Assembly (NCBI GenBank): GCA_951406725.2 | Contig: OX597838.1 | Span: 10,044,001-10,108,000, forward strand | Source: Octopus vulgaris | Lineage: Eukaryota | Direction: 5' to 3' | DNA: 64,000 nt | Shown here: in pieces, positions 11,607 through 64,000 of the stretch | Numbering within the stretch: position 1 is the stretch's first letter | Layout: each line of letters starts with the position of its first letter | Position numbers and translations under genes: made by a program | The notes under the pieces: generated by a model | Told to the model about the DNA's origin: nothing | The model's database searches: none | What the model saw: only the letters and a program-made list of their open reading frames with translations

Positions 11607-12336
11607 AGATACAGTGTAAGTTATGTTGTCATTTGAATATATCCAACCAACTTCTACTTGTTGAGTATGCTTCTGATTTGCTCAGTTCACTTCTGTTTTC
11701 TCTGGGAGTGGTAGTTGAAAGTCTCCTGCTGAGATGACTTACTCTACTGGGAGGAGAATTTCTTCCCACAGCATTAAGAATCTGATTCAAAGCCTCAAAA
11801 TTAACTTCATGGGACATAGTGTACTCATTAAGCATTATCGTCAAATTCTGTTTTAGCACTAAATGCACTTTCTGTTTCTTACGGGTTGCTGTGTCGTGGA
11901 TGGTGTAATTCAATGCCGAATTGAGTGCACTATGAGCTGTTTTGCCATCAGACAGTGTAGTGGCAAAGATACCTGAAAATGCAGCTGTCATAGTAACAAC
12001 CCTGTACTTCTATACTTCAGTCAGCAGCAGCTTCAAGAGAAAGGCATTTCTTGTTCCACTAAGTTCATCGAAAAAGACCATTTTTTTGTTCTGAATATGA
12101 CCCTCAAGTAGCTTAGACTCACTTTCAGCCATAAAATGAGTAGAGAGAGTGATGACAGATGGATGACAAGGCTGAGTGAATGTGTGAAGGGAACAAAAGT
12201 ATAATAGAAAAAAAAAAAACAGGGTGATTGGAGGGAAAGTAGTGATGGATGGTGACAGAGGTAGACAGTAGTGTGTTAGATGTGGATATGGTAGTGTATT
12301 GGATGGAAACATTTCTGCTGTGTTCTTTTGTATAGA

Positions 12337-47050: not shown

Positions 47051-47140
47051 TACTAACGAGTATTTGATTTGTTCTACCTTGAAAATTATTTTGTCTTTTG
47101 CTGCGACTCTTATATCTCTTCCTTTTATTCTCATTGCAGG
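47051..47140 (+). promoter_or_regulatory. Candidate branch point, polypyrimidine tract and 3' splice acceptor upstream of the giant ORF
   Basis: TACTAAC at 47051-47057, no AG from 47061 to 47137, then TCTCTTCCTTTTATTCTCATTGCAG|G (AG at 47138-47139). Confidence 0.65.
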
Positions 47141-47912
47141 TCACAAACTTCAAGATAAACAGATGAATACAGTGTGTGCAGCTCTGGCCATAACATCATG
47201 TCTGCATTGAAACTTGTTTCCCCCACCCCATTAATATGAGCTCCTTATATGCCCAGCCAATAACAAGAACCATAGCCTGGCCATTATAGTTCTTGTCCTC
47301 AGCTGTTATACAATTGGTGTGAATTGAATGATCCAGTGTCAGATGATGTTTTAACACTTACTGTAGATATCAAACACAGGCGGAGAATTCTGCCAAAGCA
47401 AAGCCAAGCTCTGTGAATGTAACTTACTTGGTGTCTATATTACAATCAGATGAAGAATGTTTCTCACCACATTTTCTTTCATCCCTTTAACATGATTACA
47501 TAAAAATCCTTCCTGTGAAATATTTAAAAAAAAAAAAAAAAAAACAGTATTGTGTGTGTGTATATATATAAAAACAGTCCTCGTTTGCACAAAGGATTAA
47601 TCTTTGTCACTGTAACTACAAACATTCTCTCTGTAAATGCTATTTGTGTTAACCATGGCTCATGTACAGTAATGTTACCAAATCTATCTCATGGATGTAT
47701 ATAGATATCTGTGTCTACATGGAGAAAATACCGAGTAGATTTGTCCATGCAATCCATTTTTGTTGCTGCAAAAATATTTTAAGCCTTTAGGTTCACTGCT
47801 GATACAGTACAAAGCTGCAATGAGAACCCTAAAAGCCATGTCTTTTGTCTACCCATCTAAAGAAAGGGCCTTAAAATCATAAAAATACAAGGAAAAAAAA
47901 ACAACTCAACAA

Positions 47913-47913
47913 C

Positions 47914-47944
<31 letters not shown>

Positions 47945-47948
47945 ATAT

Positions 47949-47979
<31 letters not shown>

Positions 47980-47991
47980 AATATATATATA
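47913..47991. repeat. (TA)n(CA)n(TA)n microsatellite 30 bp upstream of the ATG
   Basis: Seen directly. Confidence 0.95.
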
Positions 47992-48020
47992 AAATTATCA
48001 AACCATAAAGTTTGTCAGAA

Positions 48021-51000
48021 ATGTCTGCAAACAAAAAGCGTGGTGTCAGTAGCCGTGTCTCAAAGGCTGAGCAAGCACTAAAGAGCAGCAGCGGTAATGG
48101 CAGACCAGGAAGGTTGGTGGTAGAGTCTGGAGAAGATACTCCCAAGTCAGTGGAGAAATCTTCCTCAAAGTCTAGTGAAAGCGTTGGAAATCAAACCCCA
48201 AAGACCTCTGTGAATGCTGGAAAAGCTGTTCGTAAAGCTGGACGCCCTCGAAAGCCTCGCGACGGTGATGGCAGTACACCAGCAACTTCCACAGCCCTAC
48301 AGAACCCTGCCACTCTTTCTACCTCTGGTCCGCTGTCATCTGTTGGTGCCAAAAAAAGAGGCCGAAAAGCCAAGAATCCCGAATCTGCAGTTTCCACTGG
48401 GAGGAAAAAGAGTATTAATAAACGTGCCCTTGAAATTGTGGATACTTCGAAAGCAGCAATGGAGAAGTTACAAAAGAAAAAACCCAAAGGAACAAAGTTG
48501 TTGGCCACAACAAAAAGTAAAAAAATAGGGAAAGTTTACACAGAAAAGGGAATTCTTAGCAAAGTAAAGAAGGTTTGTCCAACAGAAAGCAAAGGCGCTA
48601 ACAAGAAAGCTGCCAAAGAACTACAGTCTGTAAATAATAGTAAACTAAAATCTTCAACTTTGCATAAAGTTCTCAAAGGTTCTAAAACAAAGAAATTGTT
48701 TTCAAACTCTGAAACTGATACCAGTGAAAGCAGCAAAATGCCAAAATCCAAAAAACTAGGGCACAACAAAGACAGTAGCGGGACTGGGCTTAAAAAGGTT
48801 AAGCTAAAAACTTTGATTAAGATGAAAAAATCTGGTAGTCAGCCAGGTAGGAAACGCAAAATACCTCAAGCTGAGTGTGAAGATTCTAAAAAGAAAACCA
48901 AAGCCAAAAAAATTGTCCAAAGTACTCCGGCCATTATCTCAAAACGGAAGTGCAAAAGTAAAAAAAATGACAATCCAGAAAGTGAGAGCAAAGGCCAGTT
49001 GGTGATAAAGAAAAAACCAGGTCCTGTGAAAGGAAGTAAAAAGGCTGTCCCAAAGACTTCTGCACTTGATACTAGCAGTAAAGTACAGAAACTGAAGAAA
49101 TCGTTATCGGATAAATTAAAAATTAAGAAATATAAGAAAGTGAAAGATAACCCGTCTCCGCACAGACTTAGTGGCGCTGAAAACGTGGTTCAGCAATCCA
49201 ACAAGTTTGAATCAGCCGATAATAGTAGAATATGTGAAACAAAAGATATTCGCTTCTCAAAGACATCTCCACTTGAGTCAGGTACACCTACGAATGGAGC
49301 AGAAAGTTCTAAAAGACTGGTGAAAACTACACTGGACAGTCATAAATTGAATGTTCAGGGTGTCCATGAAAGTGAAATATCCGATTGTTTCAAACAAGGA
49401 GTTAATGAGGATTCTATCAACAATGTCGTAGAACTGGCTGACATGTCTAACAGTGAAGGACTCAATACTGTCTTGGTGCCAAACAAGACCAAATTCCTCA
49501 ACTCTTCGGTGACTGATGTTACGGACAGCGAAGATGTAAATACACAAAGCACAATAGACAGTGAGGATGTCACTACGCGAAGTACTCTCGATAGCGAGGA
49601 TGTGAATACTCAGAGTACCGTGGAAAGTGATCGAGTGACTACTCCTTGTACAGTTGATAGTGAGGCAGTCAATACTCCAGGTACTGTTGATAGTGATCAG
49701 GTTAACACACCATATACCATAGATAGTGAAGATATAAATACTCAGAGTACTGCAGACAGTGAGAGGATCAATACTCCTTGTACAGAAGAAAGTGAAAACG
49801 CCATCCCTCCGCTTTCTGTTGACAGTGAGGAGGTGAACACCCCTTGCAGTGTCTTCAGTGAACAGGTGAACACCCCTTGCAGTGTCCTCAGTGAACAGGT
49901 GAACACTTCCTGCAGTGTAGATAGTACAGAGGCTGCAATGCCAAGCTCAATAGAAAGTGAACGGATTAATACACCTTGTTCGATTGATGCTGACGATCCG
50001 AGCAGTTGTGAACTGGTAGCTTCAGATTTGAAGGCTACTCCTGTTGTCAGTTCCCAGAGTCTAGAATACAACACTGTGGAATCTTCGAAAACCCCAGTTA
50101 ATCTGAAGGTGGAAGACAATGTGTGTTCCAATCAGACGTTAAGTAGTCTTGAACCGAAGTCACCAGCAGCAGCAGCAGCGGCGGCAAGTGTGGAACCATC
50201 AATTTTACTTGATAACCAATCCAAAGAAGTGATTAATACGGGTAGACAGAGTTCACTTCCAAACTCAGAAAGTTCTGAACCAAACCAAGCTGACTGCCAG
50301 TCGTTTCCCAACCAGTCCAGAGTTGAAGTGGAGGATGACATTTATGCCAAACCAGCAAGCTCTGTGGAAATGAGTCCTTTACTTTTGGAACTTTCCCCTG
50401 CTGAAAGTGACATAAACGTAGTTGATGATGTCGAGGTTGTTGACCCCACTAACACATCACCAACTGAACCAGATCTGTCTACAGACAATCAGGCAGATCT
50501 TGGCTCAGAGTTGATTCGCAGTCCTGTTTCACACAGTAAGAAAGCTTCCGAGCAGTTGCTGGAAATGCAACATTCTACAGAAGAAAATCATGGAGATTGT
50601 TCTACGTTTTCAGCACTGAAGGAGAAAAATTGCGATGACTCTTCGGTGTTTACTGTTCAGGCAAAACTTGTGTCTTCAAATCCGTCAGTTGAATTAGTTT
50701 CAGATGCCACCAGTTCTATGCCGGTGTTTTCATCAACTGTTAGCAAAGATCTTCAAGCAACAAATGTTGCAGCCGTATTTATTCCCTCTGCAAAGGCTGA
50801 GGACGAAGCTTACAGATCTAAATGCTGCACCAATGATGTTGGAAGTCTTGCAGAACCAGTGCAAAAAGAACTTGCTATTGCTGCAGAAGATAGTAAAGAA
50901 TCTGTGACTGATGAAGTGTTGGAAAAGTCAGCATGTGTCAATATGCCTGGCTTGGTGTCTGTCATCTCAAGACCTTCCATTATTTCTTCAAGTAAAACAG

Positions 51001-54000
51001 ACATTATTAAACACCAGCAGCAAACTAACCCAGCTGATATACATAATTTACACGAAGACAACAAGAAACCATTTCAACCCCAGTTCCCTGTCAAAGAGAA
51101 AAACATTTTTGCCTCGTTTGCTGAACTTGATCCCAAGCTTCACGAAAAGCCTCTGTCTGTAATCCGAGCAACAGCAAATCCAGAAGCTAGTGTTTCAGCT
51201 TCACTGGTGATGGAGATGTTATCACCACCCCCATCTTCCACCTTCAAACTCTCTAACTGCACTTCTGTATTGAGCAAGATCTCGAAATGTAGCACCGATG
51301 TAGACACGTGTAGTCCTGATGTAAATAAATCAGCCACTAAAATCCTGCAGGATCTTTCTTCGTCTGAAACTGTTCCGACCAGAATTCAATCACCACCACC
51401 GGAAACAATTTCTCATGGCTCTTCATTCTTTGAAAGTAAAATGAATTACATAAAGGCTACGGAGACAGAGACTTCAGCCTCACCACCCAGAGCTGGTGAG
51501 GAATGTCATAAAATCACATCGTCACACACTTATTCGAAATTTGCTGAAGATTTGCCTGATCAGAGAAACCTGCTGAAAGTTATCTCCCTTGAGCAACCTT
51601 CCTCTGGTGGTGAGCCACAACCTGCTTCACAAGCAACACCATTGTTACTTGGAACTAAACTGTCAGCAAACCAAAAGGATGATCAACCTCCAGCAACTGA
51701 ATTAGATTCCACATCTGATGAACAGAAAGTTGTTGAGAGCAGTTTGAATACGAAAATACAATGGCAGCCAAATGCTGTAGCCGCCATGTCTTCTGATGCC
51801 AAAGAGTTGGACCCTAACATAGCGTCTGTGATCAAATGTAGTGATGGTGCCAACAAGTCTGATCCAATTAAACTGTTCAAAGAGCAAATCATTAAGAATG
51901 AAATTCCCAATGAATCGCTTCAAATTAAGACTTTACCCAGTAAAGATAATTTGTATTCTCCTTCCAGTATTGTTGCCACGGCTGCGTCTAAAATTGACTT
52001 AAATTTGAACACTGCAGCATGTTCTGCTAGCTTTAAAGATGAACGTGGTTTACCCTTGGATACAGCTTCTGTCAAACTTGATCCAGACAAGCCTACGGAT
52101 AATGACATTTTCAAAGTTAATTCTGATTTACAAAAAGATACAGTTAATCTTAAAGATGATGCTGATACACAGTCAGATTCAGCTAGTCCTAAAACAGATC
52201 CTTATATGCAATCAGATGAGGATAGCCCTCAAGTGAACTCTGATGTGCTATCAAATGAAGATAGCCCCAAAGATGAGCCTGATACAATACTGAATGTAGA
52301 TAGCCCCAAAGATGAGCCTGATACAATACTGAATGTAGATAGCCCCAAAGATGAGCCTGATACAATATTGAATGTAGATAGCCCCAAAGACGAGCCTGTT
52401 ACACTATCAAATTTAGATATCCCCCAAAATGAGTCCAACACATTATCAAATGTTGATAGCCCCAAAGATGAACCTAATGCATTATCAAATATAGAAAGTA
52501 CCAGATATGAGCCTGGTGTATTATTAAATGTAGGTCGCCCCAAAGTTGAACTCAATACATTATCAGATCTAAGTATTCCTAAAGATGAACCTGGTACATT
52601 GTCAAATGTAGATAGCCCTAAACATGTACCCAATGCATTATCAAATGAAGATAGCCCCAAAGAAGAGCCTGATACATTAATAAGTATAGGTAGCCCCAAA
52701 GATGAGCCCAATATATTAATAAATATTGATAGCCACAATGTTGAACCTAGTATATTAATGAATGTAGGTAGCCCCCAAAATGAGCCAGATACATTGCCCA
52801 GTGTAGGTAGTCCCAAAGTTGAACATGACACGTTGATAAATGTCAGTAGCCCCAATGATGAACCCACTACATTATCGAATGTAGATAGCCCCAAAGTTGA
52901 ACCTGACACAGTAATAACTGTCAGTAGCTCCCAAAATGAACCCAATACATTATCAAATATAGGTAGCCCCAATGATGAGCTCAATACATCGATAAATGTA
53001 GGTAGCCCCAATGATGAGCCCAATACAATAATAAATGCAGGTAGCCCCAAAGGTGAGCCCAATACATTATCAGTTGTTGGAAGCCCTAGAGATGAACCCA
53101 GTGCATTGATAAATGTTGGAAGCCCTAGAGATGAGCCCAGTGCATTATCAATTGTTGATAGCCCTAGAGATGAACCTAATGCATTAATAAATGTTGGTAG
53201 CCCTAGAGATGAGCCCAATACATTATCAATTGTTGGTAGCCCTAGAGATGAACCCAATACATTATCAATTGTTGGTAGCCCTAGAGATGAGCCCAATACA
53301 TTAATAAATGTTGGTAGCCCTAGAGATGAACCCAATACATTAATAAATGTTGGTAGCCCTAGAGATGAGCCCAATACATTAATAAATGTTGGTAGCCCTA
53401 GAGATGAGCCCAATACATTAATAAATGTAAGTAGCCCCAAAAGTGAGCCTGATACATTATCAGTTGCTGTTAGCCCTAGAGTTAAGTCCAATACATTAGT
53501 AAATGTAAGTAGTCCCAAAGATGAGCCCAATACATTGTCAGTTGTTAGTAGCCCCAAAGATGAGCCCAATACATTAATAAGTGTAGGTAGCCCCAAAGAT
53601 GAGCCCAATACATTAATAAGTGTAGGTAGCCCCAAAGATGAGCCCAATACATTGTCAATTGTTGGTAGCCCCAAAGATGGACATGATACATTAATCAATG
53701 CAGATAGTCCCAAAGATAATAAGTCTGATGTATTATCAAATATAAATAGCCCCAAAGATGAGCCCAATGCAATATCAAATACAGACAGTCCCAAAGATAA
53801 GTCCAATACTTCAATAAATGAAGGTAGTCCTAAAGATGTCCCTGATATACAATCAGGCGCAACATGCCCCGAAATTGACCTCAGTATGCAGTTTGATGTA
53901 ACTAACTCCCAAGTTGATGCTAATATGCAATCAGATTCTGAATGTTCTATGGATGTGCAGTTGGATGCAACTAATTCCGAAGTTGATGCCAATTTGCAGT

Positions 54001-57000
54001 CAGGCTCAGCTTGCTCTCGAGTTGAACTTGACATGCAGTTGGAAGTAACTAACCCTGCAGCTAACCCCATTATGCCTCTGTCTACAGCAGATGATTTGCA
54101 AATGAATTCAGCAGCTTCCAAAGCTGATGGTGGCTCTCAGTCGACTGTGACTGTTGTTAAAGTCAATTCTGCTGCTTATCAAGACAAATGCAGTCCTGAC
54201 GTGAAGTCAGATGTTGCTGACAACACAAACGCTCCCCCTTCTGCATCTTGCGAGCCATCTTCCCCTGTGGTTGCTTCAGAGAATAAATCTCTTCAGCAGA
54301 ATCAGTCTCCAGTCGCTGGAGATAAAGCAGAGCAGTTCATCAAAAAAACATCAAAGCCTTCGGATCAATGCCAACCATGTGAAGTGAACGATAGTTCTCA
54401 GTCCTCTTCGTTATTTCCACCTCATCAAACTTCATCATCGTCATCATCAGTATCATCTGTAATACTTCCATCATCATCATTGTCATCCTCATCCTCCTCA
54501 TCATCATCCTCATCGGCATTGTCATTATCATTGCCATCAACATCATCATCATCATCATCAGAGCTACTGACTCATGAACAATCACCTAGCTTAGCTCTAT
54601 CAGATATGCCTTCTCAAGAACAGAAACTACCATTGGTTATAAGGTTTAATGATTCATCTAATACATGTGATGTGAAAAGTGACGAGGAGAAGGAAGGAAA
54701 ATCCAGTGTCAAAGCAGAGGCAACCAGTGTTGTGGTGGCAGAGAAGACGGATGTGGAAACGAAGATCAGTGAAGAAAATGCAGTTAGTTCTGTAGAGTCA
54801 TTGAATGACTCAAACGTAAATGGCATTCCTGAAAGTATAGGCAATGGCAATGAACCTCCTCCTGATATCAAGGCTTCTAGCCTTGATCCTTCATCAAATC
54901 TCAGCTGTAGTAGTGATAGTAGTAATAGTAACAGCAAGACGTCGTCTACTATGGTGACTGTTACTTCATCATCTATGGCTAGTCCATCATTGTCGAAATC
55001 TGATGAGGCTTCTGTGATACATAGTGAAGCCTCCTCCGATAGTGCAGTACCTTCCTATAAAAAGAACCCTGGTGCCTTGATACAAAATCCAACAAACACA
55101 ACAGAATCTTTGGCTGCATTTTCTTTGAATTCTGCCCCCGTTAAAAAGGAGACTCTTACTGTCCCCCCAATCAAGATAAAGGTCGAGTCTGAAGCAACTC
55201 CATCGGACTCTTTGTCCCATTTGTCAACCTCCATGGTGATAGCTCCAGCCGCTGCTCAAAGAATTCTCTCGTTAGCAACTCTGGCCAACAAAGTCACTCT
55301 GAAATCTAGCCATGCCACACCAGCCATTAAGAAATCAAAATCAGAAGATTCTGAAAGTGGCAATTTGTTATTGAAAGGAGAGACAGGTGGTCACCTGGTG
55401 GAAAGCGAAGATAACAGTGAAAGCGTGGATGAAAGAGTTTCTGGTTCAAAGAGCAGTGCTCCAGCTCCCCATAGGGTTGTGAGTGGAGATTTAACCGACC
55501 ATTCGAAGGCGGCCACAGTTGCCGCTCCTTCAGATAAAGTTCCTGAAAGAGATGTTTCTGGCTCATCAGCATCTACAGAATCTCCAAACATTGAGAAGCC
55601 TCCTCTTGGCAATGATGAGGATAACCTCTCCAGTGTTGAATTAGGGAAAACCCCTACGGCTACCGACTTGGACAAGGGCTCTGCAGAGAACACTAACAAC
55701 AGTTGCCTGAAATCTCCAAACTCCACTTCTAACCCGCAGCTTGTTTGTGACCCTTCTCCGAAAGAGAAGGACAGTGAAGAGCAAAGAAAAGGTTCTAGTT
55801 GTCAGGTTACTGTTGACCTGTCCGTCTCGGTCAGCATCGAGCCCCCTCCCACCCCCTATCCTCCCCTCTCCATATCTCCAAAGGCATCTCACAAGAACAT
55901 AGAGATGAGCAACGAGAGAACTGAAATGAGGTCATCCCCCCCTGATGATAAACCCAGCTCCTTAGCTGCAGTTAAAAAGCCAGATGTGGAAATAGTCAAA
56001 CCACAGCTGAAGCCATCATTTGCTATCTTTGACAGCTGCCTTGTGTGCATAATTTGCCGGAAGATGTGCAAAAGTAAGAAATCCTTCCAGGCTCATGTGT
56101 GGTGGCATTTTCATGCTTGTAGTCGGATGTGCACCCATTGTCTGCCTCCTCCAGAACCCATCAGTATTAATAACCAACACAAACTTCAGCTGAATAAGTG
56201 CCCTTATGTGATGGATGTTATGGTTAAGATATGTCGCACTCTTAAAAAGATACGTCAGGCGAAGCTGCAGTCTGGCAAAGACCAGGTTGAACGTGAAAAA
56301 ACATTTGCAGAGGAGGAAACTGACACCGAGAGCGTGGATCTAGACTACGACTTGAACAACGGTGGTAGTGGTGGCGGTGGGGAAAACAGTAGCAGCAGCA
56401 AGATGGCGGATCTGTCACTGACCGCAGCACAAGTTGACAGCAGCCAGTCAAACAACCAGAAATCCAATGCAACCGATGACAACAGTATATTTGCCCCGGC
56501 AAACGTTGAGTATCTCAGGTCCCTCTACTCCAGTGGTAGTAACAGCAAAAAACGGACTAAAAAGTCTTCTTCCAGTGGCCCGAACCACCACCACCACCAC
56601 CACCATCACCACCACCACCACCATAGTTCGTCCTCGTCGTCTTCTTCGTCCACCTCCTCATCTGTGGTAAACTCTTCAGTGTCGTCTTCCCACAAGAAAG
56701 GGGGTTTCTATGTCTGCGGTTTTCAGTACTGTACTTACTCCTGTATGAATTGTCTTCAGTTCCGTCTGCATCTCCAGCAGTGTCATAACTTTGAAACTGT
56801 GTTTCCTTGCTACCATTGTGGCCAGCTGAATTATTCAAAAGATGACCTCATCAAACACATGTACAATCATTCAAATGCGCGAGATTTTCTGCTATTTCGA
56901 TGTTGGTTCCCTCGGTGTCGGTTTGGTACAAACATGCTTCAAGAGTTTCACGAACACAACAACATTTTCCATGTCGGTGAGTTAGTGTTTACCTGCTTCT

Positions 57001-59629
57001 ACTGCAACACGGAGTTCCCCGAACTATCTGAACTGCTCAACCATCTCCAGTCTAATTTGCTGAAATTTGTACAATGTCCTCACTGCACTGTGAAGGACCG
57101 AAACCGAAGGACTGTTTTGAACCACATATCTACCGAACACCCACTGAAACCAAAGCAAATTGTGGTTACCTGCCAAGTTGTATGCAAAAAGAAGCAAACT
57201 GTCTCCCCTGATGCTAGTGAGATACTGCACAATCAGCATCTTAAACTAAACCAGTCTCTGTCTGAAGAACGAATACTGGAATGTATTAAATGTGGCCTGA
57301 TCTGTCGTAACATAGCAACATTACGGAAACACTCCCGCGTCTGCCTCCGAGACGCTCTTTCCAAGAAAACATTCAGCTCACCGAGAGAGAACAATTTAAC
57401 TATGATCTACTCTTGTCAATGGTGTAGTTTCCCAGCAGCCTCTGATACGATGCTTTTCCAGCACACTGTTGACCAGCATCCGGGCAAGAATGCCAATTTT
57501 GAGCAGATTGAGCTGAAGGCACTTGACTCAGGATATGGTGAATATGAAAACCTTTCTAGAATGTCGTCTTGGCTTGAAGCAACCAAGAGTGAAGCCATCA
57601 TCTGCCCTTACTGCAAAGTTGGCTTTGATGATGAACTCCAGTGGAGTGAACACATGGAGCACGAACACAACCACGAAGAGCATATAGTCAAAGAAGAGGA
57701 TGATGATGATGACGACGACGAGGATGGCCATTTATCAAAGTACCGATGTGATTTTTGTGAATTTAACGGTATTTCTGAAAAGGATCTCTTAGATCACCAG
57801 CAAATGATGACTATATCCGAGGGTCCAGACGGACTGCACAGAAGGGTTGTTGACCTCGCAAATGTAACACCAAAAGTGACGATGTTAACGGACACCAAGT
57901 TAACTGTGAGTAACGTTCAGTCATTCAAGAAGTTCAAGAGGTCACCAAGTAAAAAGATGAACAATGCATTCTTTAAGTGTTCTGGCTGCCACTTCCGGAG
58001 CTTGAGCAAGTGGCAATCATTGCGACACGTGAAGCATTGTTCCCTTGCAAAGCGACGCCTCTCAGAATATATGAAGAAAAGAGGGTCATTCGTTAGCCGA
58101 GATGAAGTGAAGGCAGATATGGACATATACAATTTCCCAGAAAGCAACTCTGGATCATCGTCTTCGTCGTCTGAGCGATTGAGTTTCACTGCCGCCAGCA
58201 GTGATGAACTTCGTAATCAAAAGAGTTCTCGAATGATGTCATACATGCGGGACAAACAGATGAACCTGATGGCCAAGGAAGGTATTATTGACTGCACAGA
58301 CAGCGAGGGATACAAGTGTTCAATTTGTAAACATACTGGCAAAACAATGATAAACATTCGGCAGCATCTGTGGAAAACTCATCTGAAACTAAAACCCGTT
58401 CGTTGTCCTTGCTGTCCATTCACGTCCTGGAAGAACTACACCCTGGAAAAGCACAAGATCAGCAAGCATCATCATTCGCATCCTAACCTCTCTGATCAAG
58501 AGATGAAATCGCTGGCTCAGAATCTCCAAGGAACCACAGATGGTCTCGTTGAATGTCAGCTCTGTTTCTACAAGAGTCCCAGTCCATATAAAGTACGAAC
58601 ACACCTCTGGCGAACGCACATGCACCTTGAAATGAAACAGTGTAGGTCCTGCTCTTATAAGTGTTGGTATTGGTACTTAATGAACATGCATCGACTGTCG
58701 CGACACAAAATAAAGGTAGACCAGAATAGCACGAAATATCAGCAGCAGCAACAGCAGAAGAGTCAAAACGAAAACAAAAATATGCTTGAAGGCAATGGTG
58801 AATCCAAAACTGATGAAAAAAATTCGTATAAACCAAATAGTGGTGACAATGCCATGTCTGACGAAGACATGAGTCAACTAGCTAAAGAGCTGATGGCGCG
58901 AAAGACTGATAATAAATACGAATGCACTATATGTAAATATGAATGCACACGCATTATGATAATGAAAATTCATATCTGGAAGCGCCATTTGAATGTAAAA
59001 CAACGCAAATGCCCATATTGTCCGTACACTTGCTGGCTAGAAACGCGTTTGGCTCAACATGTCTGTCGGATTGTAGTAGCCAGCTCTTGTGATGTTAACT
59101 CCGATGGTGGCGGCGGTGGTGATGGTGGTGCCACAGGGCCAATACAGGACTCCAAATCTCGGTGGGTGATTTCAAAAGCAGATGAACATGGTTGCAAGTT
59201 ATATATTAATAAATCAAAGCGTCCACACAAAAGACTATCGTTTGAAGAGTTCGGAAGGCCGTGTCCAAAGAAATTCCGATCACTTTCCGAAGGCGGGGCT
59301 GCCAATGGGAGTGCTGATAACAGTGTTGATGGCTTAGATGACTCTGAGAATACCTCGAGTTTTACCGCCACCTCAACTGTGGCAACTTTTGTCAAGGGAA
59401 GTAAGAACTTTTCTTGGATCCGACAGAAGCACGAGAAGTCTGTTTCTCAATCTTTCTTCCGCGTTAATGACAAAAAACTTTTTGCACGCACCACAGACCG
59501 TTTGAACCAGTTGGAAATTTATACGTGTGTTTTCTGTAGCTATAAGTCCTGGAATATGGAGGCAATGTGTCACCATACTTACAAACATAAGCTACAGTGT
59601 GGTTACTGCTTGTTCAGAGCCTACAGCCG
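48021..59629 (+). CDS. Giant coding exon of a multi-C2H2 zinc-finger / AT-hook nuclear protein (3'-incomplete; continues after splice donor at 59630)
   Basis: Stop-free frame 48012-59633 with first ATG at 48021. About 18-19 CxxC/Cx4C...Hx3-4H(C) motifs between ~56040 and 59629, and a GRPRK AT-hook near the N-terminus. The apparent TAA stop lies inside CCG|GTAAGT, a consensus donor, in the middle of the finger CGYCLFRAYSR. Confidence 0.93.
49524..49985 (+). repeat. Coding tandem repeat, 14 x 33 bp (11 aa, consensus DSExVNTPCS/TV)
   Basis: Units read from the translation: DSEDVNTQSTI, DSEDVTTRSTL, DSEDVNTQSTV ... ESERINTPCSI. Confidence 0.9.
52221..53861 (+). repeat. Coding minisatellite, 42 x 39 bp (13 aa, consensus G/DSPK/RDEPNTLI/SNV)
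   Basis: 42 in-phase units counted by hand, one with an extra codon; more degenerate units continue on both sides. Confidence 0.95.
56586..56624 (+). repeat. Coding (CAY)13 poly-histidine tract followed by poly-Ser
   Basis: 13 consecutive CAC/CAT codons in frame, just before the main zinc-finger cluster. Confidence 0.95.
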
Positions 59630-59635
59630 GTAAGT
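59627..59635 (+). promoter_or_regulatory. 5' splice donor (phase 2) ending the giant exon
   Basis: CCG|GTAAGT with GT at 59630-59631, followed by an abrupt switch to T-rich, intron-like sequence. Confidence 0.85.
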
Positions 59636-59766
59636 TGTTTTAATTTAATCAATATATCTCTCACTTTCTCTAATTTTGCACAGGGAACCTAGTTATATGC
59701 CTTGGTTACTAAATCTTATCTACTTTTGTTGTTGCTATATGTTGTTTTCAAAAATTTATGCACATA

Positions 59767-60171
59767 GGCGCAGGAGTGGCTGTGTGGTAAGTAGCTTGCT
59801 AACCAACCACATGGTTCCGGGTTCAGTCCCACTGCGTGGCATCTTGGGCAAGTGTCTTCTGCTATAGCCCCAGGCCGACCAATGCCTTGTGAGTGGATTT
59901 GGTAGACGGAAACTGAAAGAAGCCTGTCATATATATGTATATATATATTTATGTTTGTGTATATGTTTATGTGTCTGTGTTTGTCCCCCTAGCATTGCCT
60001 GACAACCGATGCTGGTGTGTGTGTGTCCCCGTCACTTAGCGGTTCGGCAAAAGAGACCGATAGAATAAGTACTGGGCTTACAAAAAGAATAAGTCCCGGG
60101 GTCGATTTGCTCGACTAAAGGCGGTGCTCCAGCATGGCCGCAGTCAAATGACTGAAACAAGTAAAAGAGTA
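59767..60171 (+). mobile_element. SINE family A, full length, 137 bp downstream of the giant-exon donor
   Basis: Same head, core and tail as 9644-10048. Confidence 0.92.
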
Positions 60172-60177
60172 TATGTT

Positions 60178-60582
60178 TAAGCCATTAGCATTCTGATTAC
60201 TATGTCAAATATGTTGTTTCACATTGTTTTGAATTAATCATGCAATTATCTTGTAGCTTTGAGTGTTTGATGGTGTGGTTGTTTATTTTTAGAATGGCAT
60301 TGTAGCATTGATGCAAGAGGCAGGATCTGGCCAGTTTGAACAGGAAAAGCTGGTTTTAAATTCTCTAACTCTTTAGCATTTGTATTATTTTGTCAAAAGT
60401 AATGCTTATTTATTCACACAGTTTTGAATTAATTATGCATTATCTCACAGCCATGAGATTTTGATGAGGTAACTGTTTAGAATGGCATTGTAGGGATGGT
60501 GTGAGAAGCCAGATCTGGCCAGTTTGAACATAAAAGAGACAGAATATTTGGGCTGGATGTGGCCAGTTTAAATGCTAAAAGG
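60178..60582. mobile_element. Two tandem decayed family-2 MITEs
   Basis: CACATTGTTTTGAATTAAT-like and GATCTGGCCAGTTTGAACA blocks each occur twice. Confidence 0.75.
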
Positions 60583-60913
60583 TAGCTCAAAGAAATGACC
60601 ATTACTATATTCTCTTGACCATTTGTCATGTTCTCCTTAAATTAATGCAATAAATGAATCGATTGCTTGGCTTATGATAAATGGCCCCTATTGTGTTTAG
60701 TTGAAGGAGAAATGGGAATTGTGGGCAAACATGCCTATTCCAGAGGCATTAGCAATGTAAGTGAAATAATTTTCACTATGATGAGAAATAAGATTGCACT
60801 CATCTTTACCAGGAGATGATGTCCTATACAGCTCATAAGCAAGCTACTATTAACTTGTTTGGATGAAGAGAAGCTAAGCCATCGACCTTTACTGCTCAAT
60901 ATTTGCTTTAAAT

Positions 60914-61121
60914 CAGTGGTTCTCAACTGGGGTCCATATAAGATTTTGTTGTTAAAATTTATATGTAGTAAATTAATTGTACAATAAACAAAATATTTTC
61001 ACAATTCTTTTATACAATTCCTAATAATATTTAATCATAGTCACTGAATGGTTAGGAGGGATTCCACCCTGCTTCTTGAGTGAAATAGGAATCTAGGCCC
61101 CAAAACGGTTAAGAACCACTG
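60914..61121. mobile_element. hAT/Charlie-like MITE with 8-bp TSD CTTTAAAT
   Basis: TIRs CAGTGGTTCTCAAC / GTTAAGAACCACTG; the right TSD is restored when the nested MITE is removed. Confidence 0.85.
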
Positions 61122-61127
61122 CTTTAA

Positions 61128-61335
61128 CCCCTTAGCATTCAGATGATTCTCTCACATGTAATGCTTTTTTCATTCACGTTGTGTTTAATTAATCATGCTT
61201 TATCTCCCAGCTTTGAAATTTTGACGATGTGATTGTATATTTTTAGAGTAGCATTGAAAGGTAAGTGTGACCAGCTGCATCTGACTGGTTAGAACCAAAA
61301 ACAAGAAGCATATTTGGGCCTGGGATGTGTCTGGG
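61128..61335. mobile_element. Family-2 MITE inserted in the TSD of a hAT MITE
   Basis: TTAA at 61124-61127 and 61336-61339. Confidence 0.8.
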
Positions 61336-61390
61336 TTAAATAAACATGGGTGGGGCTGGGTATATAGAAGCTGATAGAAGTGGCAGCACA

Positions 61391-61789
61391 TCTCTCTTTT
61401 ACTCTTACTTGTTTCAGTCATTTGACTGCGGCCATGCTGGAGCACCGCCTTAAATCGAGCAACTCGACCCCGGGACTTATTCTTTTGTAAGCCCAGTACT
61501 TATTCTATCGGTCTCTTTTGCCGAACCGCTAAGAAACGGGGACATAAACACACCAGCATCGGTTGTCAAGCAATGCTAGGGAGACAATCACAGACACACA
61601 AACACACACACGCATATAATATATACATATATACGACAGGCTTCTTTCAGTTTCCGTCTACCAAATCCACTCACAAGGCTTTGGTTGGCCCGAGGCTATA
61701 GCAGAAGACACTTGCCCAAGATGCCGCACAGTGGGACTGAACCCGGAACCATGTGGTTGGTAAACAAGCTACTTACCACACAGCCACTC
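61391..61789 (-). mobile_element. SINE family A, near full length
   Basis: Reverse complement of 59767-60171. Confidence 0.92.
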
Positions 61790-62990
61790 TGGGTATTTGT
61801 TGAAACATGTGAGTGAAATGTTGCCAATTTGATGATATTGATCGATTCTGGTTTCTATCAGCCCATTTGAAACTGGCCCTAGTTCTGTGATAAAAACTTC
61901 CTGTTTTAACGTGATCTCAAACCTTTCATCAAAGTTTCATATTTATGTTCCAAACATCAGCTTAATAATGACAAAGTTTACTAAATTCTTTAGAATTTTC
62001 TAAATTAATTGTATTAGTGAAGGGAGTGCATGTCAATAGAAATATGATAACTAGCGTAAAAAAAAAAATATCTTTACCAACATTAGCAAAACCAGTGGGT
62101 TTTTTTTTCTATGCTATTCCTTGTGTAAACCCACTACAGTTTAGAAATCACTAACATTGACTGTATGGCTTTTTTAAACACCTTGTTGTCTCCCTTTATG
62201 TGCTGAGTTTATTTCAGTGATGTGTTTCCTTGGGCCACAGACACTGATGTATGGCTTCAGTACTGTTTAACTGATCTAAGATGAATCTGTTCCGGGATAG
62301 GATGCCAGCCTATATAGCAAGTAACATCCTCAGACAAACTTGTACCAATTCCTGACGGCTCTAAGGTCTATAGAATTCTTGTGTTATGTTCAGAAACACA
62401 AATAAGTATTTGTATCTATTACGATTGATGGTTTGTTAGCCAGTTGTCTTACACCTAGTCACTTGACCAATGTGTTTACACAACCCTTAAATAACGATTT
62501 CTTTAACCAAACATGAAATAGGGTTAGACTGACCACACAATAGAACTGTATTCAGCCATGTTCCTCTTTCACGTTCTTATCATTGTCGTTTAACATCCAC
62601 TCTTCCATGCACAGGTCAGAATTCCCTTTTTTTCTTCTTCTTCTTTGAGACAGCTTTTCTATGACCAGATGCTCTTCCTGTTGCCAACCTCACCTGTTCC
62701 CAAACCTGATAATATTTCCTCGTGGAAGACTGGAAACAAACCTCACCTGTTGTATGTTGGTGATACACTTTTACAATCATAAAATGATGTCACGGCATGG
62801 TCACACACACATAATGAGCTTCTTTCAGATTCCATCAACTAGATGCATTCACAAAGACATGGGACCCTGACAGGTGCTACTAATCTGCATCAGAGTAGAC
62901 CTGGGAAAAATAGTGGCTAAGAAACAGTCCCACATGCCACAAAACCTTGGAACTTCTGACACCAGTGCCCCGCTACCAGATGCAGTTTAA

Positions 62991-63208
62991 CCCTTTCGTT
63001 ACCATATTTTTGAGATGTTCTGTGTTTCTTTCAATTCATTTTAAATATAACAAAGAATTTAGTAAAATAACTTAGTTATCATTCAGCTAGTGTTAGGAAG
63101 ATACATTGTGACTAAGGTTTGGCAGAAGATTTTAATTCAGAACTTTTGCAAACAAGACATTTGTATTCAGAGCCAGAGGCAGTTTCAGCCAGGTTGGTAT
63201 CGAAAGGG
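62991..63208. mobile_element. MITE family 1 (opposite orientation)
   Basis: TTAA|CCCTTTCGTTACC...GGTATCGAAAGGG|TTAA. Confidence 0.9.
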
Positions 63209-63667
63209 TTAAAACCATACCCATTAGACTTAATTGTTAATGCTAAGTGAGTTATGGTTGTAGAAGTGAAATGGCACAAATGGAATAATGGGTGCTTGGA
63301 ATTCAGATTCTCTCAGTGGTTCTGTTCTTCTTTTTGTCTCTAGTTTGTAGTTTATAATATCTGAGAAAAGACTTCTCTCTACCCTGTCAACATCAAGTAC
63401 TGTATCCACTTCATTCTGAATATCCCAGTCTGTTTGGTTGTAAGTAGATACCAGAGTGTGAAATTCCTTCAACTCTGCAGCTTGTGTGAGTGACATAAAT
63501 AATAGTTTTGTTAGTTTTAGGTTCTGGGTATAGGTTCTCTTGTAGCCCTGATACATGAATAGATTGTGCTCCACAATGGAATCATATTTCAGTATGGACA
63601 TCATGGAATATGATACCATTTGTGGGTGTGTGTGTGTGTACACACCTGTGCTTATCCCTCTATTATA

Positions 63668-64000
63668 TTAGGTTGTCAAGAAAGTTCTTGCGGCTTTTAA
63701 CCTTCAAATTCAGATGCGCATATCTCAGCTCAAACAAAACTTTATTAATCGAAATAAACACCATCAGAATCAACACTTGCCAACGCAAAACGAGTTTATT
63801 TATGCCAGTAGCATACAAATCTGGTGACGAAGTCGTTGAAGTTGTGTTTGGCATCGTCTTGGTTTTTTAAGCATTTCTCACTCAGGAAGTTGTTGAGATG
63901 CTTGAAAAAGTGGTAGTTGGTAGGCGAGAGGTCTGGTGAGTATGGCAGGTGAGGCAGAGTTTCGTAGCCCAATTTGTTCAACTTCTGCAAGGTCAGTTGT
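63668..64000 (-). mobile_element. mariner transposase 3' part and TIR (runs off the window)
   Basis: LPHLPYSPDLSPTNYHFFKHL (mariner YSPDL motif) and YATGINKLVLRWQ; TA followed by the TIR-like TTAGGTTGTCAAGAAAGTTCTTGCGG. Confidence 0.9.

Follow-up and report, generated by a model that had tools for sequence, protein, structure and literature searches.

In a 64,000-nucleotide stretch of the Octopus vulgaris genome (assembly GCA_951406725.2, contig OX597838.1, positions 10,044,001 to 10,108,000; the window), the forward strand carries a very long reading frame for a zinc finger protein that stops after the two cysteines of a finger, which raises the question of whether the protein ends with half a domain or whether the stop codon is part of a splice site. 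We put at roughly three in four the probability that this is an intact, spliced gene whose last exon completes the split finger and whose product is likely a chromatin-bound scaffold that recruits repressive partners. Taken separately, the gene structure is close to certain, and a role for the protein as a nuclear chromatin regulator is probable. Coordinates below are those of the window and its plus strand unless a contig or the minus strand is given.

The Reading Frame Ends in a Splice Donor

The frame is open from 48009 to 59633, 3,874 codons from stop to stop with the first ATG at 48021, in line with the ∼3,870 uninterrupted codons of a preliminary description made from the sequence alone, and no other plus-strand frame in the 64-kb window is longer than 228 codons. 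Its 3′ end reads ...CGYCLFRAYSR, followed by TAA inside AGC CG/GTAAGT, with 59629 as the last exonic base; the sequence agrees with the earlier observation that the His pair is missing and that the TAA lies within CCG/GTAAGT. The Cys half of the finger (59598-59629; CGYC plus seven residues) is followed by a 9,361-nt phase-2 intron (GTAAGT...AACAG), which occupies the window from 59630 to 64000 and ends past it at G000:C25:10112990. The acceptor, TTTTTATGAACAG/G at G000:C25:10112991, restores the arginine codon (CG + G), and the last exon (G000:C25:10112991-10113738 plus the 3′ untranslated region (UTR), plus strand) supplies the His half of the finger, three more fingers, and a conserved C-terminal motif. 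The joined finger is CGYCLFRAYSR/KKIADHIDEFH, and the spliced product has 4,118 residues with one stop, 94% of them encoded by the large exon. An in-frame TAA at the donor is ordinary and needs no special device, because any phase-2 intron that starts with GTAA yields one. A nearer AG, 54 nt after the donor, was considered as acceptor and rejected; it opens a frame without a His pair, and the orthologous sequence maps 9.4 kb further on.

Use of the donor was examined in contigs, not reads, from three runs of three studies that we take to be RNA (X1, X5, and X7), with a DNA-like run (X16) as contrast; statements about contigs hold among those listed, beyond which there are 944 further joints. 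The X1, X5, and X7 contigs align up to 59630, where an extra G is common to the intron and the next exon, and then continue for 1,843, 770, and 1,628 letters that do not match the window, whereas X16 reads through the donor to 59786. Placed along the last exon, the X1 overhang would finish in simple repeats 1.1 kb beyond the stop, the X5 overhang in a TCC repeat 23 nt beyond it, and the X7 overhang ∼25 nt past an ATTAAA. Read-through past 59630, for which the preliminary description had allowed, is seen in X16 only. The closest relative, Argonauta P0001 (4,364 residues, 80% identical over the finger region, with the same start Met), reads on past AYSR with KKIAEHIGEFH, a continuation that maps 5 kb past the window end, and the joined finger is also present in P0007, P0163, and P0166, proteins whose contigs do not exceed 4,543 nt. 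The original proposal that the stop codon is a splice donor cutting a zinc finger is therefore upheld, with the donor used in contigs of three runs and the His pair in an exon 9,361 nt downstream. The large exon is the first coding exon and the next exon is the last, so that the product is just 248 residues longer than the open frame; of the suggested internal exon of a still larger protein, the onward splicing stands, with a small gain in length.

Extent and Continuity of the Large Exon

A polypyrimidine tract and AG acceptor (47118-47139) precede the large exon. The X1, X5, and X7 contigs start to align at 47139, with 245, 263, and 283 foreign letters in front, and the acceptor at 47140 is entered in all three RNA-like runs. 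The upstream UTR exon or exons were not located, and no CpG-rich start stands out in 1-47139. The 5′ UTR part of the exon (47140-48020; 881 nt), which contains a poly-A run and an AT/CA microsatellite, is likely continuous with the coding part; it also holds 21 ATGs, and the many short upstream frames could damp translation. Coverage extends over 47139-47513 in X1 and X7 and over 47139-47467 in X5, at depths of 10, 32, and 19, respectively, similar to those of the adjacent coding contigs (11, 33, and 28), and 47659-47901 is covered in X1 alone, at a depth of 2.7.

The coding part of the exon (48021-59629) comprises 3,869 codons, together with two bases of the Arg codon that the intron splits, and begins MSANKKRG, as in Argonauta P0001. 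One RNA-like contig extends 21 letters upstream of 48001, into the AT microsatellite, and 47892-48008 contains no AG, so that this exon measures at least ∼11.65 kb; it is likely 12,490 nt, if 47140-48000 is unbroken, in agreement with the single exon of 11.6-12.5 kb first proposed. Inside the frame, single contigs run without joints across 48001-52288, 53628-56575, and 56663-59630. The listed RNA-like contigs break only at tandem arrays, three of which are unbridged, and give no sign of the splicing out of the interior that had been raised as a possibility. Among the 26 single-base differences listed for the frame (21 more rows lie beyond these), 11 of 11 in the finger region and nine of 15 in the spacer that precedes it are synonymous. 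One X1 contig lacks 12 nt at 55418, in frame, a loss that X5 and X7 do not show, and A-to-G differences in RNA-like contigs at 50481, 54026, and 55403 could equally be alleles.

A blastn comparison with 533 kb of other DNA from the same genome (hits of at least 50 nt; the figures are lower bounds) found no dispersed repeat in 47140-59629, against 43 segments covering 26% of the bases in 1-47139 and six segments covering 47% in 59630-64000. The reported contrast between an exon free of transposable elements and its flanks thus persists, although the density of one element every few hundred base pairs is not reached (about one per 0.7-1.1 kb, a lower bound). The exon does contain tandem repeats, namely a 39-nt array, 33-nt arrays, microsatellites, and TCA and ACC runs; where the 39-nt array lies, the minus strand also has a frame of 635 codons, which only mirrors the repeat. 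Neither cryptic splice sites nor poly(A) signals in the exon are depleted compared with 200 synonymous codon shuffles.

Organization of the Predicted Protein

The protein begins with a basic region (48021-49220; residues 1-400, net charge +74, 26% Lys and Arg) that includes a GRPRKPR motif, presumably AT-hook-like. It is followed by an acidic Ser/Thr/Pro-rich spacer (49221-55970; residues 401-2650, net charge −180), which makes up 54% of the exon. It is likely disordered by a rough measure, its values not exceeding the charge-hydropathy boundary for disorder. Within the spacer are 33-nt (11-residue) tandem repeats (49524-49918), with related units in Argonauta, and a 39-nt (13-residue) array (52249-53847; 40.9 copies) in which 29 units keep a D/G/S-SP-K/R motif; a related 13-residue unit is also repeated in Argonauta, with nine pattern matches. 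The finger region (55971-59629) contains 15 whole C2H2 or C2HC fingers, single and paired, and the Cys half of the 16th. By a strict pattern the protein has 19 fingers (15 in the large exon, the split one, and three in the last exon), and by a looser one 20. No TGEKP or SGEKP linker occurs in the 4,118 residues, and a Pfam scan gave no PF13465 or PF00096 hit, all hits being C2H2 types with ZNF462 finger models, below the cut-off, as the best; the fingers are, as originally described, dispersed and not of the Kruppel-array type. Identity to the Argonauta protein in 250-residue bins is 71% over residues 1-250, 18-48% over residues 251-2750, and 76-93% from residue 2751.

The five-finger core that defines the family (56694-57197; 168 residues, alignments A1 and A2) is predicted to pack as one module, its AlphaFold2 model having a predicted local distance difference test score of 93.4 and a predicted template modeling score (pTM) of 0.77. 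Compared with solved finger proteins, the model gives query-normalised template modeling (TM) scores of 0.15-0.23 and root mean square deviations (r.m.s.d.) of 9-24 Å, with no superposition on DNA-bound arrays. Among 48,161 chains no match reached Z 5, the best being Snail1 (Z 4.4, 52 residues, r.m.s.d. 3.4); the absence of a whole-module structural match does not make the core a new fold. For the core, the ESM Atlas yielded no more than generic C2H2 clusters, and its matches to the C-terminal motif did not exceed 0.76. The last exon, when modelled, gave a pTM of 0.38 and a poorly defined tail. A 44-residue motif near the C terminus recurs in 15 of the 85 sequences searched, eight of the 15 being seeds, and a strict PxVx[LMV] is present in eight of these 15 rows (three rows are one gene; eight are seeds). 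By the definitions of the PxVxL and HAC-type HP1-ligand motifs in PMC12526061, the HAC-type pattern matches once, inside the C-terminal motif, in six of six orthologue rows and none of the nine others. No CtBP motif was found in the protein.

A Lophotrochozoan Family with a Probable Shared Intron

Judged by its sequence, the gene is a member of a lophotrochozoan family, as yet unnamed, that has the five-finger core in common. With membership defined as at least 150 core positions matched at 70 bits or more, the core profile search gave 79 full-length matches among 173 collected proteins, this gene scoring 281 bits, and the NLLK...HPxKP..IxV...C stretch in which the family core ends is present here. 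Thirteen of the 23 clusters looked up carry names. They represent cephalopods as well as five bivalves, three gastropods, one nemertean, and one brachiopod; the annotation is hypothetical or uncharacterised in every case but one, which is labelled, mistakenly, as a serine-rich adhesin. Named members include Argonauta GAB1608034.1, Octopus LOC115224503, Argopecten XP_069136052.1, Mercenaria LOC123534235, Lineus LOC135501493, and Lingula LOC106171239.

The preliminary description could assign no orthologue; sequence comparison now identifies Argonauta P0001 and the unnamed proteins P0007 and P0166 as such. In a tree of 75 rows, from which nine near-duplicates were omitted, they group with this gene (100/100; stem 0.39, tips below 0.02), and this group is sister to that of a paralogue at 19.41 Mb (95/86). 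A single clade for 16 cephalopod or cephalopod-adjacent rows, a group named after the tree had been seen, is not rejected (p-AU 0.24), a result that does not establish an expansion confined to cephalopods. The basic N terminus was found among relatives in Argonauta only, and a search with the N-terminal 420 residues found no protein shorter than 2,127 residues (0 of 7,985 candidates).

With 150 of 1,983 candidates scored, the genome holds at least six family copies at E 9e-21 or better; five of them lie on C25, and three fall within 190 kb. The paralogues at C25:19.41 Mb and C25:28.71 Mb have AG/GTAAG at the same Arg of the matching finger, with ∼7.3 and ∼5.9 kb of coding sequence, respectively, before the shared intron and ∼11.6 kb in this gene. 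The former matches, at 99.6-100% identity, a protein that bears the label Octopus vulgaris, and its joint agrees with the annotated P0002 and P0005; the joint of the latter is a prediction only. Because the intron splits a finger, gene calls based on frames end these proteins at a half finger, and 12 of the 79 family proteins, versus one of 94 other finger proteins, end exactly at CxxC+7. Eleven of these 12 are 2,122-2,805 residues long, and the five whose source was looked up derive from ENA or Logan contigs. Their places in the tree are beside Mercenaria and Sinanodonta for eight, beside Argopecten for one, within groups that include gastropods for two, and with a cuttlefish-containing cluster for one. 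The intron position is thus likely common to the clam and snail relatives, and we infer from the protein ends that early molluscs, at the latest, had both the intron and an exon of 6-8 kb; an old architecture for the family as a whole is probable.

Three further copies differ in form. A convergent paralogue 59 kb downstream (C25:10172956-10179048, minus strand) has one 2,030-codon frame with 13 fingers, none of them split, and its orthologue bears the next locus tag in Argonauta. Another (C25:10277328-10286311, plus strand) lies in two frames of 1,297 and 1,670 codons, an assembly error or a broken gene, and the break falls inside a long tandem array of 12-13-residue and 10-residue units. The copy on C6 has an in-frame TGA (C6:39256185-39256183, minus strand; context TGA CTA G) that separates a 280-codon frame from a 712-codon frame holding the core. 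The 280-codon frame matches the N-terminal part of the uninterrupted relative P0056 (41% over 152 residues, E 8e-38), and the orthologue P0061 (83%) starts at a Met 30 codons after the TGA. Given that UGA-CUAG is a readthrough motif (PMC4132726), the C6 paralogue is a candidate for programmed readthrough, or else a broken gene.

Proposed Function and Alternative Explanations

The mature transcript would consist of the UTR exon or exons, the large exon, and the last exon, with splicing needed to complete finger 16 and to add three fingers and the tail. The exon of this copy would have grown by expansion of the disordered spacer, partly via tandem repeats. In the protein, the basic N terminus and the paired fingers may contact chromatin, whereas the compact five-finger core and the PxVxL-like C-terminal motif may bind partner proteins, and ∼29 SP-K/R sites in the acidic spacer could be phosphorylated. 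By analogy with ZFP462, partners might be recruited through the C terminus, and that the protein is a repressor of specifically this kind is a tentative suggestion, less likely than not. A bolder and more doubtful extension is that this undescribed family of giant-exon genes would be the invertebrate counterpart of ZFP462-type heterochromatin targeting factors, with at least six octopus copies, this one having near-frozen fingers and a spacer swollen to a 12.5-kb exon; its marks would be a compact core unlike DNA-wrapping arrays, the old finger-splitting intron, and the PxVxL-like tail. Two chromoshadow-domain genes are present (C10:58583550-58583693 and C6:132034988-132035098), of which the C10 gene is divergent and stops right after the conserved Trp.

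Other gene structures have to be weighed against the spliced one. Were the TAA a real stop, reached by intron retention or intronic polyadenylation, a regulated form of 3,870 residues with half a finger would result, and with an in-frame stop directly at the donor any retention would indeed end the protein there; the same stop, however, arises in every phase-2 GTAA intron, and with none of the listed X1, X5, and X7 contigs passing a point that X16 does pass, we regard this as highly improbable. Scarcely better placed is a main transcript that loses much of the exon interior as exitrons, leaving the 12-kb exon as a minor form. Short-read contigs cannot phase 12 kb and break at tandem arrays, the 944 further joints leave room for such events, and strong cryptic sites are not depleted (five GTRAGT seen, 5.9 expected from the 200 codon shuffles), but the three joint-free intervals, a frame intact throughout, and a spacer of similar length in the Argonauta model argue for the exon as it stands. 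Less remote, although still unlikely, is that 47140 opens a separate short UTR exon and that the large exon begins at ∼47790-47892, with a length of ∼11.8 kb. The lack of bridging contigs over 47514-47658 and 47902-48000 and the thin coverage between them, from one run, would suit such a division, as would AGs with some upstream pyrimidines near 47790 and 47861. Yet the X1 piece is unspliced across both candidate acceptors, contigs from 47139 reach the poly-A stretch without a joint, the coverage breaks fall at repeats, and 47140 is the sole acceptor within 1.8 kb of the ATG with at least 14 of 17 pyrimidines, so that we prefer the undivided exon.

With respect to function, the protein could instead be a sequence-specific DNA-binding factor of the activator or insulator type, with the spacer as an activation or condensate-forming region. 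Its 19-20 strongly constrained fingers, the charge of its spacer, and its basic N terminus are in keeping with this, and the profile hits in the PDB are DNA-binding finger proteins, for example PRDM9 and CTCF. These hits are generic to C2H2 fingers, however, and the failure of the core model to superpose, the lack of TGEKP linkers, and acidic or hydrophobic residues at helix positions −1, 2, 3, and 6 of several fingers make a DNA-binding factor of this sort possible but on balance unlikely.

Several points weigh against an intact gene for a scaffold that recruits repressive partners. The RNA nature of the three runs is a guess, and contigs stand in for reads; minor internal splicing may occur, given the further joints; an additional A behind 48905, within an A run, would shift the frame in one X1 contig and is absent from X5, X7, and X16; no listed contig bridges the repeats at 47514-47658 and 47902-48000; and the join of the contigs to the last exon rests on overhang lengths and on the orthologues. 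In the family, CxxC+8 is where four of the 79 relatives end, a position for which the same intron does not account, another 63 have their ends at other places, and the copies at C25:10.17 Mb and on C6 have no such intron in view. In the tail, this gene has VRVVL and not a strict PxVxL (the orthologues have VRV(V/I)L or VKVVL), the one match to the Drosophila HP1-ligand pattern is fewer than the 2.8 expected by chance at this size, and that match lies in another register, a conserved Asp at +4 breaking the pattern in the family register. Finally, the Pfam scores of 21.0 bits for PF23225 and 20.3 bits for PF23075 fall short of the cut-off of 27.

Comparison with Known Systems

Human genes include longer exons, such as those of MUC16 (∼21 kb) and TTN (∼17 kb). 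Other animals, too, have very long exons of this type, and the octopus exon is real, large, and of a known kind; less ordinary are the unnamed family, the probably old intron, and the predicted compact core. In HEK293 cells, 0.4% of the internal exons are ultra-long, a class defined by a length above 1,000 nt and for which dependence on RBMX-type cryptic-site repressors is a further criterion (PMC11446547). In nuclear proteins, disordered regions are often what long internal exons encode, with repeat expansion as one route of growth (PMC9825244), and in mammals they carry more N6-methyladenosine (m6A) (PMC9990141). Like the ultra-long exons of human genes with nuclear and genome-stability roles (PMC11446547 and PMC9825244), the octopus exon far exceeds 1 kb, consists mostly of coding sequence for likely disorder, and belongs to a finger protein; its donor is in use, with three RNA-like runs leaving at 59630, X16 reading through, and orthologues spanning the joint. 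Unlike them, it is ∼12 times as long as the threshold, includes the start codon together with a long UTR, and cuts a folded domain at its 3′ end. The available text of PMC11378355 gives no exon sizes, and nothing was found in the literature covered on large constitutive exons with SRSF3.

ZFP462 has been described as vertebrate-specific. Vertebrate ZNF462 has 2,506 residues, 27 dispersed C2H2 fingers, and 13 exons (PMC11536911), and ZFP462 is associated, through its C terminus, with G9a/GLP and HP1, with little direct HP1 recruitment found at its sites (bioRxiv 10.1101/2021.06.28.449463). The octopus protein resembles ZNF462 in its great size and its dispersed, unlinked fingers, and ZNF462 finger models are its best Pfam hits; the orthologue P0007 reaches 28.5 bits on PF23223, with no single stretch passing. 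In contrast, no vertebrate protein is among the 13 named five-finger-core clusters, and no ZNF462 sequence was found among the hits (15 non-family hits scanned). By the Pfam cut-offs, the sequence does not support orthology with ZNF462.

As in the expanded C2H2 complement of coleoids (PMC9068888), this is an octopus C2H2 gene with local duplicates, although it differs in having no TGEKP linkers or PF00096/PF13465 matches and in belonging to a family that is small and old, with members in bivalves and gastropods as well as a nemertean and a brachiopod; the available text of that paper does not mention it. With the unnamed lophotrochozoan proteins it shares the core, and many of these also share the terminal fingers and the C-terminal motif, but its region before the core is much longer. 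No description of a mollusc giant-exon zinc finger gene, family, or intron was found in the literature covered, most subscription papers and supplements being outside its scope, and gene lists in supplements may name the gene.

Elsewhere in the genome, another long frame of 3,252 codons (C29:10634443-10644201, minus strand) has 18 finger matches with Kruppel-type linkers and lies outside the family. C25:10298814-10303652 (plus strand) holds a tandem pair of unbroken frames, 612 and 608 codons long, of which the first has a PF00027 cyclic nucleotide-binding domain (50.7 bits), and in the window a fragment at 11632-12009 (minus strand) matches the PIF1-like helicase PF05970 (34.7 bits) and is likely a transposon remnant.

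The paralogues, with one intron position and ∼5.9, 7.3, and 11.6 kb of coding sequence before it, provide a cephalopod test case for the rules of exon growth, exon definition, and m6A worked out in mammals. The family is strongly conserved and, in the named sources, uncharacterised, and it could fill the place of a missing factor that targets silent chromatin in the repeat-rich genomes of molluscs.

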